A DNA stretch of 64,000 bases from an uncultured Actinomycetes bacterium (GTDB lineage Bacteria > Actinomycetota > Thermoleophilia > UBA2241): assembly GCA_963755025.1 (NCBI GenBank), contig CAVWIH010000034.1:96001-160000 (forward strand), written 5' to 3'. Made by a program: the position numbers and the translations under genes. Positions 8,209-40,097 of the stretch are shown one piece after another. Below the pieces are notes generated by a model, which made no database searches, had not been told where the DNA came from, and saw only the letters and a list, made by a program, of their open reading frames with translations. Positions within the stretch are counted from its first letter, which is position 1. Each line of letters opens with the position of its first letter.

Positions 8209-9189
8209 ATGACTGAGATGGCGATCGAGGCAACGGGCCTCGTGAAGACGTACCCCAAGGGGGTGAAGGCGCTCGCCGGAGTGAGCTTCGGCGTCGCCCC
8301 CGGCAGCGTGTTCGGCCTGGTCGGGCCCAACGGCGCCGGCAAGTCGACCACGGTGAAGATCCTGACGACCCTCTCGCGGCCCGACAGCGGCGCCGCCGAG
8401 GTGGCCGGCATCGACGTGCTGCGCCGCCCCGACGACGTGCGCCGCGCGATCGGCTGCGTCGCCCAGAAGTCGGGCGTCGACGTGCAGGCGACGGGGCGCG
8501 AGAACCTGCTGCTCCAGGGCCGCCTGTACGGCATGAGCGGGCGCGCGCTCGACCAGCGGGTCGAGGCCATGCTCGGCCGCTTCGGCCTGGCCGACGCGGC
8601 GCGCCGGGTCACGCGCACCTACTCGGGCGGCATGCAGCGCAAGCTCGACGTCGCCATGGGCCTGATCCATAGTCCCCGGGTCCTGTTCCTGGACGAGCCC
8701 ACGACCGGCCTCGACCCCGAGGCGCGGGCCGACATGTGGAGCGAGATCGAGCGGCTGGCCGACGAGGAAGGCCTCACCATCCTGCTCACCACGCACTACC
8801 TCGAAGAGGCCGACAGGCTGGCGCACAGCCTGGCGATCGTCGACCGGGGCAGGATCGTGGCGCACGGCGCCCCGGAGGACCTGAAGAGCGAGCTGCACGG
8901 CGACGCCGTGCACATCGAGCTCGACGCGGTCGAGACCAACGGTCACGTGGCCGCGGCGCTCGCCGACCTGGGCGACGTGCGCGACGTCGTCGTCGAGCAG
9001 GGCCGCCTGTTGCACGCGCGAGCCGACAACGGCGCCCGCGCCGTGCCCGTCATGCTGCAGGCCCTCGAGGCGCGCGGCGTGTCGGTCGTCGCCGTCACGG
9101 TCGCGCGCCCCTCGCTCGACGACGTCTATCTGAAGTACACAGGCCGCCGGTTCGAAGAGGCCGACGCGACCCCCGAGGTGACCCGATGA
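8209..9189 (+). CDS. ABC-2 exporter ATP-binding subunit (DrrA-like)
   Basis: GPNGAGKST, YSGGMQRKL, LFLDEPTTGLDP, TTHYLEEAD. Confidence 0.93.
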   Translation: MTEMAIEATGLVKTYPKGVKALAGVSFGVAPGSVFGLVGPNGAGKSTTVKILTTLSRPDSGAAEVAGIDVLRRPDDVRRAIGCVAQKSGVDVQATGRENLLLQGRLYGMSGRALDQRVEAMLGRFGLADAARRVTRTYSGGMQRKLDVAMGLIHSPRVLFLDEPTTGLDPEARADMWSEIERLADEEGLTILLTTHYLEEADRLAHSLAIVDRGRIVAHGAPEDLKSELHGDAVHIELDAVETNGHVAAALADLGDVRDVVVEQGRLLHARADNGARAVPVMLQALEARGVSVVAVTVARPSLDDVYLKYTGRRFEEADATPEVTR

Positions 9190-9959
9190 CAGCCCTGCGA
9201 CACACGTACCATCTCACCGTCCGCCAGGTGCGCAACTTTCTGCGCCAGCCCTGGTTCGTGGCGCTCTCGCTGTTCCAGCCCATCATCTACCTGCTGCTCT
9301 TCGGCGCCCTGTTCAAGAAGGTCGTCGAGATCCCCGGGTTCAGCACCGACTCCTACGTCTCGTTCCTCACTCCCGGCATCGTCGTCATGAGCGCCATGTT
9401 CGCCGGTGGCTGGAGCGGCATGGGCCTGATCGACGACCTCGACCGCGGCGTCATGGACCGCTTTCTGGTGGCCCCCACGAGCCGCGGCGCGATCATGCTC
9501 GGCCGCGTCACGCCGCAGGTGCTCACGATCCTCATTCAGACGCTCATCATCGTGGGCCTGGCGCTGGCCGTGGGCGGGCGGTTCGGCGGCGGCGTGGCCG
9601 GCGCGGTCATGCTGATCGTCGTCTCGACCCTGCTGTCGATCGGCGTCGCGTCGTTGTCGAACGGCATCGCGCTGCTGCTGCGCAAGGAAGAGTCGGTGAT
9701 CGCCGCCGTCAACATGGTCCTGTTGCCGCTGATCTTCCTGTCGTCGGCCTTCCTGCAGCAGAACCTGGCGCCGCAGTGGATCCAGGACATCGCCCGCTAC
9801 AACCCGGCCGACTGGGCGATCGAGGCGGGCCGCACCGCCCTCTCGAGTAACGCCACGGCGCACACGGTGCTCACGCACACGCTCTACCTGGCCGTCTTTG
9901 CCGTGGTCTGCACGTTCCTCGCCACGCGCGCGTTCCGCTCCTACCAGAGCTCCGTCTGA
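9186..9959 (+). CDS. ABC-2 exporter permease (DrrB-like)
   Basis: Six TM helices and PQWIQDIARYNP. ATG overlaps the upstream stop. Confidence 0.9.
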   Translation: MTALRHTYHLTVRQVRNFLRQPWFVALSLFQPIIYLLLFGALFKKVVEIPGFSTDSYVSFLTPGIVVMSAMFAGGWSGMGLIDDLDRGVMDRFLVAPTSRGAIMLGRVTPQVLTILIQTLIIVGLALAVGGRFGGGVAGAVMLIVVSTLLSIGVASLSNGIALLLRKEESVIAAVNMVLLPLIFLSSAFLQQNLAPQWIQDIARYNPADWAIEAGRTALSSNATAHTVLTHTLYLAVFAVVCTFLATRAFRSYQSSV

Positions 9960-9968
9960 GCCGCGGGC

Positions 9969-10005
9969 CGGGCCGGCCGCGGCGCCCGGCGCCGCGGCCG
10001 GCCCG
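9969..10005. terminator. GC-rich perfect inverted repeat after the ABC-2 operon
   Basis: 18 bp arms CGGGCCGGCCGCGGCGCC / GGCGCCGCGGCCGGCCCG. Confidence 0.6.
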
Positions 10006-10052
10006 CCAACGGCGCCCAACGCTTGCCGCGTGGGGCCCGAGGGTATGATGCC

Positions 10053-10187
10053 GGCGAGCGAGAGCTCGGTCGTGTGCGGGATGAAGGTCTTCGGGTCGTA
10101 AACCGCTGTGGGGAGGTGACTCCTCCAAAGAAAGCTCCATGCTCGCGCGCAAGTGCGGGGGAGCTACCGCGCCGGCTTTCGCTCGTT
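10053..10187 (+). ncRNA. candidate structured ncRNA resembling the 16S rRNA h16-h17-h18 junction
   Basis: ~20 bp closing stem (10053-10074 with 10168-10187). h16-like GCGGGATGAAGGTCTTCGGGTCGTAAACCGC with a UUCG loop, plus two GNRA-capped hairpins. -10-like TATGAT at 10044-10049 and a terminator directly after. Confidence 0.75.
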
Positions 10188-10190
10188 TCG

Positions 10191-10214
10191 CGCGGCCCTT
10201 CGGGGCCGCGTTTT
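10191..10214 (+). terminator. intrinsic terminator of the candidate ncRNA
   Basis: CGCGGCCC-TTCG-GGGCCGCG followed by TTTT. Confidence 0.85.
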
Positions 10215-10242
10215 CGTTGGGGATTGCGGAACAGGCCGTTGC

Positions 10243-10325
10243 CCTCACAGCCCTGAACGGGTCGCTGAGCTCACAGTTTTGGGCAGTCCGCCGAGCTCAC
10301 GGCTTTGGGCAGGCCGCTGAAGCTC
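10243..10325. repeat. degenerate ~26 bp tandem repeat (2-3 copies)
   Basis: CGCTGAGCTCACAGTTTTGGGCAGTC / CGCCGAGCTCACGGCTTTGGGCAGGC / CGCTGAAGCTC. Confidence 0.6.
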
Positions 10326-10329
10326 CGGG

Positions 10330-11406
10330 CTAGAGCAAGCCGGTGAAGTTCCCGGTCCCCCAGGGTGAGGCCGCCACGGCGTCGGCCACGGCTATGGCGC
10401 TGGTGCCCGAGCGCAACGCGGCGAGGATGCCGCCGTAGTAGCCGTTGCGCAGCGTGGCGATGGTCGCGGTGAAGCCCTGCGCCCAGCTCACGTAGGCCTT
10501 GACGCCCACGGAGTTCATGGAGGTGGCGCCGGGCTCGGGCATGGTCGTGTCGAGGGGATTGTAGTGGGCCGTGTTGTGCCAGTTGCCGCCCTCAGCCATC
10601 TCCCAGGCGGTGATCGCGGCCGCGTTTTGCTGGGTGAGCGGCATGTTGAGCTGTTCGAGCAGCGCCCTGGCCCACGTGATGGGCGTGTAGCGGCCCGAGA
10701 GCGGCACCGACGAGACCATGCCCCCGCTGTGCGGGTTCTGCGCGGCCAGGATGCGCTGGATCTGGCGCGTGAACGCTTCGAGGATGGCGCGCCGCTGGGC
10801 GATCTTGTCGGACATCGCGAGGCGTTGCGCGTCGACCTGGTCCTGGGCGGCCTGCGACTCGCTGCGCTGGCCGGCGAGTGAATCGGCGAGGCGCGTGACC
10901 TGGGCGTTCAGGCGGGCGAGGTTCGCGGTGTCGCGCTGGCCCTGCTGGGTCAGGCGCTTGAAGAAGGTGACCTCGGTCTGCGCCTGGGTGATCGTGGCCG
11001 AGCCGGCCAGCACGTCGACGAACGAGAACGTGCCCATCTTGTACATGGCGGCGAGGCGCCCGCCCACCAGGGCGCTCTGCTGACTGAGGGCGTTCTGGGA
11101 CTGGGCGAGCTGCAGACGAGTCTGCGAGAGCTTCATGTTCACGGCGGTGAGGTTGGCGACGGCGGCGTTGTACTGTGCGCCGATCGTCTGCATCTGCGTT
11201 TCGAGGAGGGCCATCTGGCGGCGCTGACCGCGGGCCGCGGCTTCGAGGCCGTTGAGCGTGGTCGGGGTCTGCACGGCGATGATGGCGGTGGGCGAGGCGG
11301 CAGCCGGCCCCGGCACGAGGGCGGCGCAGCAGAGGGCGACGGCGGCGGCCGCCACGGCGGCCGCCGCCGTCGCCCGCACGAGTCGTTTGTACCGGCGCCG
11401 ATCCAT
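10330..11406 (-). CDS. secreted coiled-coil (PcsB/CwlO-like) protein with putative lysozyme-like C-terminal domain
   Basis: Signal peptide, long Q/A/L coiled coil with RLAAMYKMG, and C-terminal AWEMAEGG..HYNPLDTT..YVSWAQG..SPW. Confidence 0.65.
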   Translation of the reverse strand: MDRRRYKRLVRATAAAAVAAAAVALCCAALVPGPAAASPTAIIAVQTPTTLNGLEAAARGQRRQMALLETQMQTIGAQYNAAVANLTAVNMKLSQTRLQLAQSQNALSQQSALVGGRLAAMYKMGTFSFVDVLAGSATITQAQTEVTFFKRLTQQGQRDTANLARLNAQVTRLADSLAGQRSESQAAQDQVDAQRLAMSDKIAQRRAILEAFTRQIQRILAAQNPHSGGMVSSVPLSGRYTPITWARALLEQLNMPLTQQNAAAITAWEMAEGGNWHNTAHYNPLDTTMPEPGATSMNSVGVKAYVSWAQGFTATIATLRNGYYGGILAALRSGTSAIAVADAVAASPWGTGNFTGLL

Positions 11407-37131: not shown

Positions 37132-37151
37132 CTAATTGACCGGTCGATTAG
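37132..37151. promoter_or_regulatory. palindromic operator, copy 3 (upstream of mtbB-mttB)
   Basis: CTAATTGACC|GGTCGATTAG, a 20 bp palindrome with one mismatch, 35 nt before the start. Confidence 0.75.
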
Positions 37152-37186
37152 CACGACCGCCATGGCGTGATCTGGGGAGGGCAAGC

Positions 37187-38596
37187 GTGACGACAGAAGA
37201 CCGGGTGCCGACCCGAATGGCCGACGGCACCTTCGTGCGCCTGACGCGCAGCGAGATCAAGGCCGATCTCGTGGCCGGGTCAGAGGCGGCGGCCAAACGC
37301 GCCAAGGTGGCGCCGCTGACCGACGACGAGATCGACCACCTGCTCGACATCTACGCCTCGCCGGCGCGCTTTACCGGGGTCGACGTGGGCGACGAGATCG
37401 TCCTTTCCTGCGACGGCACCGGCATGAAGACCCACGCCACGCGCATCCAGGACCTGCAGACCTACGAGCAGTGGATGGGCGCCGACCTGCTCGAGCTGTG
37501 CGTGGGCGACTACTCGCTCAAGGTCGTGCGCACCATCCTCGCCTACGAGGCGCAGTACATGCACGACGCCCAGCTCTGCACGGTGGCGCCGCTGCAGTAC
37601 GGCGTCATGCCCAACCTGGGCCTCTATTCCAAGCCCGACGGCCCCTGCGACAACTGGAACGAGCTCCTGCCGCTGGGCCGCATCGACGAAGCGCGGGCGT
37701 CTGAAGAAGAGGCCGTCGAGATGGCCGTGGTCGACATGGTGCGCCTGGCCGACACGCAGTACGAGGCCGGCGCCGACGCCATCGACTGGGACACGACGGG
37801 CGCCTCGGGCGACCCCGAGTTCCTGGCCGCGCTGCGCGCCACCGCCATCATCCGCAAGAAGTACCCCGACTTCGGCGTGCAGCTGGGCATGGCCGGCGAG
37901 TTCGTGCTGGGCATGCACGGCCGGCTCGAGTACGAGGGCGTGCGCCTCGCCGGCCTGTGGCCTAAAGACCAGCTGCTGCTCGCCCAGCAGGCCGGCGCCA
38001 CCATGTTCGGGCCGGTCGTCAACGTGAACACCGGCAAGAGTTGCGCCTGGAACATCGCCCGGGCGATCGCCCTGGTCAAGCCGTGCATGGACGTAGCCAC
38101 CATCCCCGTCCACATGAACGCCGGCATGGGCGTGGGCGCCGTGCCCATGTTCGTGCACCCGCCGGCCGACGCCGTGTGCCGGGCGGCCAAGTCGTGCGTC
38201 GACATCCTGCACCTCGACGGCTTATAGGTTGGTTCCGGCGACCCGCATGGCATGCACAGTGCGCATGCGCAGGCGGCGGGCATGGGCGGAATGCGAGCAG
38301 CCGGAGACCTGGTTGCTCGCCTGCAGATGACCCGCGGTATGCGTCTGGCGCAAGCAAAAGACTATGTGGCCGGCAAGCTCGGCGTGACGCCGTTCGACCT
38401 GTCCGACCCCGTCGTCATGACCGACGTGCGCAACGACTTCGGCTTTGGCCGCATCCACAGCTACGCCATCAGTCAGCCGGCGCAGGCCAACCAGATCGAG
38501 GCCAAGGTGAACATCGCGCGCGTGCTCGACATACCCATCAACTGTGTGGAGCGCTTCAGGGAACGTACGACGCCGGTCGCCGGCGGCGTGCGCTGA
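37187..38596 (+). CDS. mtbB: dimethylamine:corrinoid methyltransferase, pyrrolysine-containing (TAG 38225-38227, codon 347 of 469)
   Basis: ORFs 37136 and 38252 are one frame. TRMADG, MPNLGLY..PDGP, DTTGASGD, GEFVLGMHG, LAGLWP, then DGL-O-VGSGDP..GMRAAGDLVAR. This matches Methanosarcina MtbB DGI-O-IGVGDP..RAAGDLVAR as recalled. Confidence 0.93.
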
Positions 38597-38621
38597 CGCG
38601 GCGACCGAGGGAGGGCGACTG

Positions 38622-40097
38622 ATGATCCGCAACCCGCGCGCCGGCGCGCGCAAGAGCGGCGGCTTTCGGCTCGAGGTGTTCACCGACGACGAGCTGCGCG
38701 AGATCCACCTGGCGACGCTCGAGGTGCTGTCGCGCACCGGCGTCTTCGTCGAAGACGACGAGGCGCTCGAGCTGTTCGCCCAGGCGGGCGCCGACATCGA
38801 CCGCGAGCGCCGCGTCGTGCGCCTGCCGGCGCACCTGGTCGAAGACGCCGTCGACGCGGCGCCCTCCACGGTCGTGCTCTGCGGGCGCGACCCGGCGAAC
38901 GACGTGGTCTTAGAAGACGGCCGCGTCGGCTTCACCAACTTCGGCGAGGGCATCCAGGTCGTCGATCCCTACACGGGCGAGCTGCGCGAGTCGCACAAGG
39001 CCGACGTGGCCGACTGCACGCGCCTGATCGACGCCCTGCCCGAGATCGACGTCGTCGAGCGCCCCCTCGGGGCGCACGACGTGCCGCCCGACACGGCGGC
39101 CCTGCACAACGCCGAAGCGATCTTCTCGAACACCACCAAGCACGCCACCATCGGCCCGCTCTCGGGCTTCTGCGCGGTGAAGATGATCGACATGGCGGCC
39201 GCCATCGCCGGCGGCCGAGACCGCTTGCGCAGGCGGCCCATCCTCTCGTTCCTCACCTGCCCGGTGAGCCCCCTCAAGCTCGTCGCCGACGCCTGTCGCA
39301 TCATCATCGAGGGGGCTCGTGCCGGGGTGCCGGTCAACGTGCTCTCCATGGCCATGGCCGGCGGCTCGTCGCCGGTGAACCTGGCCGGCACGCTGGTCAC
39401 CCACAACGCCGAGGTGCTCGCCGGCATCACGCTGGCACAACTCACCGTGCGCGGCGCGCCCGTCATTTACGGCTCGTCGACGACCGCCATGGACCTGCGC
39501 TACGCGAGCGCCTCGGTGGGCAGCCCGGAGTGCGGCATGATCGGCGCCGGGGTGGCCTGCCTGGCGCGCTTCTACTTGCTGCCCAGCTGGGTCGCCGGTG
39601 CGTAGGGCGACTCCAAGGTGGCCGACGCCCAATCCGGTCACGAGAAGACACTCACCAGCCTGCTACCGGCGTTGGCAGGGGCCAACCTGATCTATGGGCT
39701 GGGGATGTTGGAATCGGGCGTCACCATCGACTACGCGCAGCTCGTCATGGACGCCGAGTTCGCGCGCATGGTCAAGTTCTGCGTGCCGGGCATCGCCGTG
39801 AACGACGAGACCCTGTCGGTCGACGTCATCGCCGAGATCGGCCCGTTCAGCGACTTTCTCTCACACGACGACACCTACCGCGGCATGCGCGGCCAGTCGC
39901 GCTCGAAGTTGATCGACCGGCGGGTCCGCGAGGAGTGGGTCGCCGCCGGCTCGACGACGCTCTACGAACGCTCGCGCGCCGAAGCCTGCCGCCTGCTCGA
40001 GAGCCACGTGCCGCAGCCGTTGCCGCCCGAGGTGGCCGCCGAGCTTGCCGCCATCATCGCGGCGGCAGAGCTGGAGCTCGGCGTGGGGCCGGCCTGA
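38622..40097 (+). CDS. mttB: trimethylamine:corrinoid methyltransferase, pyrrolysine-containing (TAG 39603-39605, codon 328 of 491)
   Basis: ORFs 38544 and 39618 are one frame. CPVSPL, NVLSMAMAGGSSPV, HNAEVL, YGSSTT, VGSPE, then WVAGA-O-GDSK..QSGHEKT..LPALAGAN.IYG.GMLE, the Pyl-MttB signature. Confidence 0.95.

Follow-up and report, generated by a model that had tools for sequence, protein, structure and literature searches.

A conserved, 16S rRNA-derived RNA element in one family of uncultured Thermoleophilia, and its predicted binding of ribosomal protein uS4

The DNA analysed here, referred to throughout as the window, is a stretch of 64,000 nt that forms part of contig C34 in the MAG of an uncultured member of the Thermoleophilia (genome label G000, completeness 84%). 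Within it, an element of ~135-180 nt sits between a + strand operon for an ABC-2 exporter and a - strand gene for a 358-aa protein. The features of this locus, in the order in which they occur, are as follows.

8209-9189, + strand: ABC-2 exporter ATPase gene, in the same operon as the permease gene.
Stop codon at 9959, + strand: ABC-2 permease gene of the exporter operon, upstream of the element.
10007-10039, + strand: conserved CAACGG and hairpin P0 (10010-10039), either a first RNA helix or an inverted repeat in the promoter region.
10041-10049, + strand: GGGTATGAT with an invariant GGGTA; contains TATGAT at 10044-10049.
10053-10074, + strand: 5' strand of the closing stem P1, from the MFE fold; its junction end, CGUG, corresponds to the 16S stretch entering h16 (the 3' strand of h4 there).
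10075-10109, + strand: junction U (405), full h16 copy at 10076-10106 (E. coli 406-436) and junction UGU (437-439), from the Rfam alignment (SSU model 401-436).
10108/10110-10126, + strand: h17 stub, with basal GGAGG/CCUCC as in the 16S of the same genus and a loop of 3-4 nt.
10127-10133, + strand: purine linker AAAGAAA, from the Rfam alignment, equal to the h17/h18 junction strand of 16S.
10133-10165, + strand: h18 stub, paired at its base and bulged by 3 nt on the 5' side, its GC-rich hairpin ending in a GCAA cap that replaces the 530 loop.
10168-10187, + strand: 3' strand of P1; its start resembles the 16S stretch after h18 (the 3' strand of h3 there).
10190-10218, + strand: intrinsic terminator, a 9-bp GC hairpin (10190-10211) followed by TTTTCGTT.
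10330-11406, - strand: gene for a 358-aa protein without a Pfam match, convergent to the element.

On the + strand, 10053-10187 forms a four-way junction composed of a closing stem, an h16 copy, an h17 stub, a purine linker and a capped h18 stub, with the closing stem P1 extending over 20 bp (10053-10074 with 10168-10187). The initial annotation had listed a stem, h16-, h17- and h18-like parts, a linker, a terminator and the hexamer TATGAT, and each of these was found where it had been placed. Folding of 10044-10214 (+) gave an MFE of -90.7 kcal/mol (z = -3.8), an equally good fold being obtained in 1 of 200 shuffles, while the - strand folded more poorly at -70.4 kcal/mol. Conserved G-U pairs are numerous, for example at columns 26/175 (15 of 17 copies) and 40/49 (17 of 17), and as these would become A-C mismatches on the - strand, the + strand is the functional one. 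A pattern scan of 9700-10500 detected one terminator-like site only, on the + strand at 10190-10211. The same terminator hairpin and T tail are present in the copies of G002 and G004; in the others the hairpin is either present but not followed by a T run, or absent.

A permissive Rfam scan of 9900-10400 against 4227 families returned SSU_rRNA_bacteria as its top match (model positions 401-535, 18.1 bits, E 0.0035), with the order h16, h17 base, purine junction, h18 base preserved in the alignment. SSU rRNA was the only relevant match among these families, in agreement with the initial annotation, whose author did not recognise a described family in it. With 18.1 bits, and a span of 401-535 on a model of 1533 positions, the window's copy falls short of membership of RF00177. 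A homologue from another genus (G021) matched the same SSU span, 401-535, at 65.6 bits, above the 50-bit threshold, and the 3-kb locus around it contained no 16S gene and no SSU match beyond 401-535. The search was also run in the reverse direction, using a covariance model, R1, built from nine element copies only. Across the 89 genomes of the family, R1 found ten full-length copies at 85-156 bits, and its next-best matches were 46 further places in these genomes, at model positions 23-124 and 25-31 bits. Twelve of these 46 places were compared and all 12 fall in 16S genes, in the h16-h18 region. As R1 finds 16S and the SSU model finds the element, the element and the h16-h18 region of 16S recover each other both ways. 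The likeness exceeds chance, and the element is an RNA derived from a 16S fragment, not a 16S gene. The resemblance to 16S in 16S order, which had been proposed from the nucleotide sequence and an ORF list, is thus confirmed by both the Rfam match and the reciprocal search.

In total, 19 copies of the element, 17 of them distinct, were recovered from 10 species genomes, representing three genera of one Thermoleophilia family, and from 9 metagenome contigs. Copies were present in 8 of the 12 genomes of the window's genus, g1 (G000, G002, G003, G004, G006, G009, G010 and G011), in the one genome of g11 (G021) and in 1 of 54 genomes of g10 (G081), and in none of the 22 genomes of eight other genera, which amounts to 10 of 89 genomes family-wide. 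A 151-genome sample of the class added no copy, the one extra match, in G165, being a true 16S. A pattern scan of one genome per species for 185,579 species gave 41 loci, 8 of which were confirmed by R1 while 33 were chance matches, and the confirmed loci all belong to the same Thermoleophilia / Actinomycetota MAGs. The corresponding scan of metagenome contigs gave 20 loci (9 confirmed by R1, 11 chance matches). As the pattern needs an exact 14-15-nt h16 word, diverged relatives outside the family would escape it. Two matches from a DNA search, L017 (G008) and L018 (G016), were short, lay within coding-looking sequence and had no R1 match, and were rejected as homologues.

Across the 17 distinct copies, 96.2% of the cells assigned to pairs were paired, as against 44-55% when the partners were slid by 1-3 columns. 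Changes on both sides were seen in 13 of 40 pairs of the R1-aligned copies, and none of 500 shuffles attained any of the five measures used. The double-changed pairs lie in helix 1, which is P1 (5 of 17 pairs; 96.1% of cells paired), helix 4, the h17 stub (3 of 7 pairs), helix 5, the h18 base (4 of 5 pairs), and the inner h18 stem (one pair). The two h16 stems never covary, because h16 barely varies. It is kept at full length, all 17 distinct copies agree at E. coli positions 404, 406-411, 413-415 and 424-438, and 31 of the 37 listed positions from 404 to 440 are invariant. The initial annotation had suggested a selected miniature, not a decaying fragment, and had named homologues and covariation among the ways of checking it. 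The 17 distinct copies bear this out, as P1 and the two stubs have undergone compensatory change around an h16 that is invariant. The element is not indispensable, and can be lost within the genus. An orthologue of the 358-aa gene is present in G001 and G005 beside a different upstream neighbour and with the element absent, and G007 has the flanks in common with G003 and lacks the element between them.

No 16S or 23S genes were found in the MAG of the window, and genomes of the same genus served as the 16S reference, G002, G006 and G010 having both the element and 16S. The h17 base and the purine junction of the element are nearly identical to those of the genus's own 16S, the linker differing by 1-2 bases. 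In the basal stem of h16, both strands differ between the element and this 16S, and the element is thus not a recent copy of the 16S of its own genus. Three forms of h18 occur among the 17 distinct copies: two copies (G021 and G081) keep GGCUAAC, three have another long insert, and 12, including that of the window, have the short capped form. In G021 and G081 the natural h18 bulge GGCUAAC is retained and only the 530 loop has been swapped for a small hairpin, which covaries between the two. The long-h18 copy of G021 was identical to the 16S of another Thermoleophilia family at 92 of 109 aligned bases, against 77 of 99 for its own family, and that of G081 at 93 of 111, against 81 of 100 at best. 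Since these long-h18 copies are nearer to the 16S of a foreign family, the capture is either old or came from outside. An assembly chimera with an rRNA operon is ruled out, as the MAG lacks 16S and 23S and the element recurs with conserved synteny in other assemblies.

Among the natural RNA sites for S4 away from the ribosome are leaders, namely the E. coli alpha-operon pseudoknot (RF00140), the Firmicutes rpsD leader and candidates in Bacteroidia, Clostridia, Flavobacteria and Fusobacteriales (PMC7247131). In the genome of the window, rpsD was found once, on contig C2, in the row infA-rpmJ-rpsM-rpsK-rpsD-rpoA. No mimic-like leader was detected at this r-protein row, where R1 matches reached at most 10.9 bits, and a search for PF00163, considering first-domain matches only, found no second rpsD. 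Each g1 genome with a match had one copy of rpsD, irrespective of the element; no match was obtained in G009 and G011, both of which are element-bearing. None of the seven matches of the permissive scan of 9900-10400 (E up to 10) was to an Rfam S4 leader model, and the only match to RF00140 was at rpsM elsewhere in the genome (18.3 bits, E 0.68). With the downstream gene convergent and rpsD on contig C2, the element does not occupy the 5'-UTR position of an S4 leader. Thus, by position and by Rfam model, it is not a cis S4 leader, and the earlier observation that no r-protein gene follows it holds for the gene next to it and for the sole rpsD found.

The requirements of S4 for its rRNA site are described by Bellur and Woodson (2009, PMC2665224), who used a 200-nt five-helix-junction RNA (H3, H4, H16, H17 and H18) that binds S4 at ~0.7 nM. 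As described there, truncation of H17 (446-487) and deletion of 516-535 in H18, the 530 loop, are well tolerated for S4 binding. Truncation of H16 abolishes binding, at a cost of >380-fold, and substitutions at 404, 405, 406 or 437 leave it undetectable. The same work gives G410, A411 and 425-430 as backbone contacts to S4 and names an interaction with A412. Residues 508-512 contact S4, and a double mutation of A509 and A510 abolished binding; the minimal RNA bound S4 360-fold more weakly when H3 was deleted, and deletion of H4 was likewise disastrous. In addition, the GUAA of h16 is described as the motif imitated by the Firmicutes S4 leader (PMC7247131).

Numbering of the element was set by the Rfam alignment together with the residues named in the former paper (U405, G410, A411, A412, A509, A510, G524 and C526). 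The element contains H16, H17 and H18 in order, and the parts that have been trimmed and capped, the H17 tip and the 530 loop, are those reported as dispensable in PMC2665224. The intact H16 and the binding-critical residues that this work calls for are present: all 17 copies have G404, G406 and U437, and 16 of them have U405, the exception being G081, with G405. G410, A411 and 425-430 are invariant in the 17 distinct copies, as is the GUAA of h16. Several features count against uS4 as the ligand. The combination of H3, H4 and 508-512 that PMC2665224 reports as needed is not present; in P1 the 3' halves of H4 and H3 pair with each other, which leaves no separate H3 and a single stem for both helices, and this stem may fail to replace them. 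Of the 17 distinct copies, just two retain GGCUAAC with the 508-512 contact, and U or C takes the place of the A412 named in the paper (PMC2665224). The G405 of the G081 copy, and the loss of the element in G001, G005 and G007, were also counted against uS4. An evolved mimic could compensate for the lost H3 and 508-512 contacts. The kept and trimmed parts thus match the published needs of S4, yet H3 and mostly 508-512 are missing, and binding of uS4, as predicted from the comparative fit, is likely; we hold it with moderate confidence.

A fragment of 16S, corresponding to E. coli ~398-556, is the ancestor of the element, and closed on itself when the strand entering h16 came to pair with the strand after h18. 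The core of the uS4 site, that is the whole of h16, the junction residues and the bases of h17 and h18, was kept, and the parts that uS4 does not need were shed. We propose that the structured RNA made from the + strand would bind free uS4 off the ribosome and hold or titrate it, and such capture would affect the targets of free uS4, namely nucleation of 30S assembly, repression of r-protein operons and rrn antitermination. Our best reading of the element, to which we give an even chance, is that of a small 16S-derived RNA that binds free uS4 off the ribosome and would thereby buffer or titrate it. That a domesticated piece of 16S works as a stand-alone RNA, a trans decoy setting the free uS4 available for 30S assembly, operon repression and antitermination, can be put forward only tentatively. 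The identity of the ligand as uS4, the action in trans and the physiological outcome are what we infer.

Alternatively, the element could be a functional mimic of the 16S shoulder for a partner other than uS4, such as an enzyme modifying rRNA, an assembly factor, or a nuclease or toxin with recognition of h16 and the junction, towards which it would act as a decoy or competitor. Conservation and covariation show selection on the fold without naming the ligand, and H3 and 508-512, both needed by native S4, are missing in most copies, which leaves room for such a partner. RsuA (U516) and RsmG (G527) act nearby in 16S and both need the 530 loop, yet this loop is replaced in 15 of 17 copies, and a factor or toxin with specificity for h16 is not known to us. 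For precisely these helices, the contact and deletion data in the literature single out uS4 (PMC2665224), and we consider a different partner unlikely.

The region between the exporter operon and the closing stem bears on how the RNA is made. The arrangement ACG...C(17)-G(48)...GGGTA is in register in 17 of 17 distinct copies, and a hairpin can be folded in the P0 region of each. In one fixed register, 65.7% of the P0 cells were paired, compared with 39-47% in slid controls, and the covariation score of 0.220 was reached by 3 of 500 shuffles. Comparison of the copies thus lends the P0 hairpin moderate support. As symmetric changes in a protein-binding palindrome mimic RNA compensation, P0 may be either the first helix of the RNA or a promoter operator. 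The hexamer TATGAT had been taken as a -10 box, a reading that found no support. Its counterparts in the homologues are TATCAA, TATCAC, TACCAT, TAGGAT, TATGCT and TACGAG, the last position being variable and the final T unconserved; GGGTA is the invariant part, CAACG and a hairpin stand before it, and an RNA-library contig starts upstream. With a conserved 5' hairpin and GGGUA preceding the closing stem, TATGAT is doubtful as a promoter. No sigma-70-like promoter was found by a pattern scan of 9700-10500. A reading of GGGTA as a sigma-B/F-type promoter is not claimed, -35 positions, as judged by eye, being inconsistent among the copies.

Eighteen metatranscriptome runs contained 5-9% of the words drawn from 1.7 kb of sequence surrounding the element, and four of them were examined as contigs. 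Run X1 yielded a 183-nt contig with adapter at both ends, which covers 10041-10174 with 2 differences, its strand not being recorded, and begins ~11 nt upstream of GGGTA. A 151-nt contig of run X3 covers 10067-10213 with 8 differences, strand and transcript ends again not being recorded. Run X2 held variant forms of the element, one contig bridging into the convergent gene. Depth in X1 was 19.7 for the element and 11-15 for the flanking genes, that is, similar, and DNA carry-over is possible. Transcription of the element is compatible with these contig data. A further X2 contig has joints at 10087>10149 and 10212>10331 with short sides, and is probably from a relative or a contig artefact. The stretch 9927-10040 was uncovered in all four runs examined, which is uninformative. 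Pile-ups of 36 nt at 10074-10109, with a depth of up to 4543 in run X5, were recognised by their loose ends as true 16S of other organisms, so that X5 is uninformative on the element.

Among the neighbours, the gene for the 358-aa protein is the steadiest, being adjacent in all g1-type loci and at most 2.5 kb away in G021 and G081. Its translation, judged by eye, has an N-terminal hydrophobic stretch resembling a signal or membrane anchor. Its place beside the element is regarded as shared synteny, no functional link being seen. An ABC-2 permease gene lies shortly 5' of the element on the same strand in all eight element-bearing g1 genomes and in metagenome loci L116, L117 and L118, and the element follows its stop codon after 2 nt in G002 and, in the window, after ~47 nt. 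G081 has a divergent methyltransferase gene on this side, and no ABC domain is encoded by the ORFs preceding the element in G021, L112 and L119, although both element and 5' motif are retained there. No common functional theme was found among the neighbours, the upstream genes varying between an ABC-2 permease, a methyltransferase and others.

This arrangement invites the reading that the ABC-2 exporter operon ends in the element, which would serve in cis as its structured 3' tail, either as a transcript-stabilising or terminator module or as a 3'-UTR RNA freed when the long stem is processed, possibly one responsive to uS4. The permease gene is in the right place in the genomes and loci just named, and several genomes have the conserved 5' motif directly behind the upstream stop codon or only a few bases from it, so that the RNA could arise as the tail of the exporter mRNA. 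The lack of a sigma-70-like promoter in the scan and the start of the X1 contig upstream of TATGAT fit this as well. Against it, element and 5' motif persist beside the divergent methyltransferase gene and where an ABC neighbour is lacking, and in the window a strong GC hairpin of its own stands between the permease stop codon and the element. Moreover, a plain terminator module needs no invariant copy of h16. We judge an origin of this kind quite improbable. A neutral 16S relic or an assembly artefact without function is disfavoured and highly improbable, for although the narrow distribution (10 of 89 family genomes) and the loss from some members of the genus would suit it, it is opposed by the spread over three genera and 17 distinct sequences, the compensatory changes, the truncations that end in caps, the recurrence of the element in matching synteny in independent assemblies with no rRNA operon in the MAG to mis-join, and an h16 stem unlike that of the genus's own 16S, which speaks against a recent copy.

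Returning to the reading of the element as an RNA that would bind free uS4, its closest counterpart is an engineered one. Like the 16S junction and the engineered five-way junction RNA (5WJ) as described in PMC2665224, the element has H16, H17 and H18 in order and residues 404-406 and 437, and, as in 5WJ:H17trunc and 5WJ:H18trunc, its H17 and 530 loop are shortened and closed by small loops (PMC2665224). In contrast to 5WJ, as it is described in that work, the element is natural and four-way, has P1 in place of H3 and H4, for the most part lacks the 508-512 bulge, and carries an additional 5' hairpin and its own terminator (PMC2665224). The engineered minimal S4 site is closer to the element than any natural RNA found. 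With the S4 leaders, the element would share the provision of an off-ribosome RNA site for uS4, here a predicted one, and some leaders are described as imitating the h16 GUAA (PMC7247131). These leaders, in the account of PMC7247131, precede operons of rpsD or rpsM, on whose translation they act in cis, whereas the element has no r-protein gene downstream. The element also copies ~90 nt of 16S in order, far more than any S4 leader.

CsrB and RsmZ titrate CsrA, and 6S RNA imitates the target of RNA polymerase. The element would have in common with these RNAs the proposed sequestration of a protein by a stand-alone RNA that mimics its target. It differs from them in that its putative ligand is a ribosomal protein and the decoy is descended from the natural target itself; in further contrast, neither high abundance nor multiple sites are in evidence.

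In the literature searched on S4 and the five-way junction, rRNA mimicry, S4 leaders and h16/h18 noncoding RNA, no stand-alone 16S mimic was found, and that on small or structured RNA of the Thermoleophilia gave only unrelated papers. The words decoy and sponge are absent from a 2024 review of the extraribosomal functions of r-proteins (PMC10931766), and according to this review and the literature searched, RNAs that bind r-proteins by imitating rRNA are known only as cis leaders of r-protein operons. The element is real, conserved, structured and rRNA-derived, is undescribed in Rfam or the literature searched, and is confined to one family of uncultured bacteria. If our reading is true, it would be the first natural sponge for a ribosomal protein, with the engineered minimal S4 site as its man-made counterpart, and if uS4 is indeed captured, it would represent a hitherto undescribed kind of regulator. 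A free-standing, terminator-ended site for uS4 would add a trans layer to the control of ribosome biogenesis. The element would also point to a route by which new non-coding RNAs arise, with a fragment of rRNA being captured and then self-closed. Being short, at ~135-180 nt, it is easily testable in vitro with recombinant uS4. It may be seen as a natural experiment on what uS4 needs, in which H3, the H17 tip and the 530 loop have been removed by evolution while H16 has remained frozen.

The gene convergent with the 16S h16-h17-h18 mimic RNA was found to be the most constant neighbour of this element over three genera.

10330-11406, - strand: convergent gene, encoding a 358-aa protein for which a Pfam search returned no match

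The protein is laid out as an N-terminal hydrophobic stretch, which, judged by eye from the sequence, is a possible signal or membrane anchor, a long middle part and a C-terminal region of ~130 aa. Several paralogues per genome were matched in four genomes (G001, G005, G007 and G008). Downstream of the orthologue of this gene in G007 (locus L139, contig C43), the flanks shared with the element-bearing genome G003 were retained while the element between them was gone, with ~330 nt of unrelated sequence lying farther upstream, which looks like a lineage-specific loss.

Two repeats were observed around the element.

9960-10006, + strand: strong GC-only inverted repeat with arms of ~17 bp, between the stop codon of the exporter permease and the conserved CAACGG motif
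10267-10318, + strand: two tandem copies of a 26-nt repeat, in the spacer that separates the element's terminator from the convergent gene's stop codon

The inverted repeat, present in the window and absent from G002, may serve as the terminator of the exporter operon itself. The 26-nt copies were absent from G002 and G004, where the terminator-to-stop spacer is far shorter than in the window.

A search of the whole genomes of G009 and G011, both element-bearing, did not find Ribosomal_S4 (PF00163); G011 is rated 100% complete. This probably reflects a gap or search miss, rather than true absence of the uS4 gene.

Elsewhere in the window, two methyltransferase genes were identified.

37136-38596, + strand: dimethylamine methyltransferase gene (PF09505, 547 bits)
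38544-40097, + strand: trimethylamine methyltransferase gene (PF06253, 291 bits)

Their frames are open only with readthrough of an in-frame TAG, at 38225 and 39603 respectively, and Rfam PYLIS_2 and PYLIS_3 matches lie directly at these codons (63.7 and 72.6 bits). Both genes of this Thermoleophilia MAG are of the pyrrolysine type.
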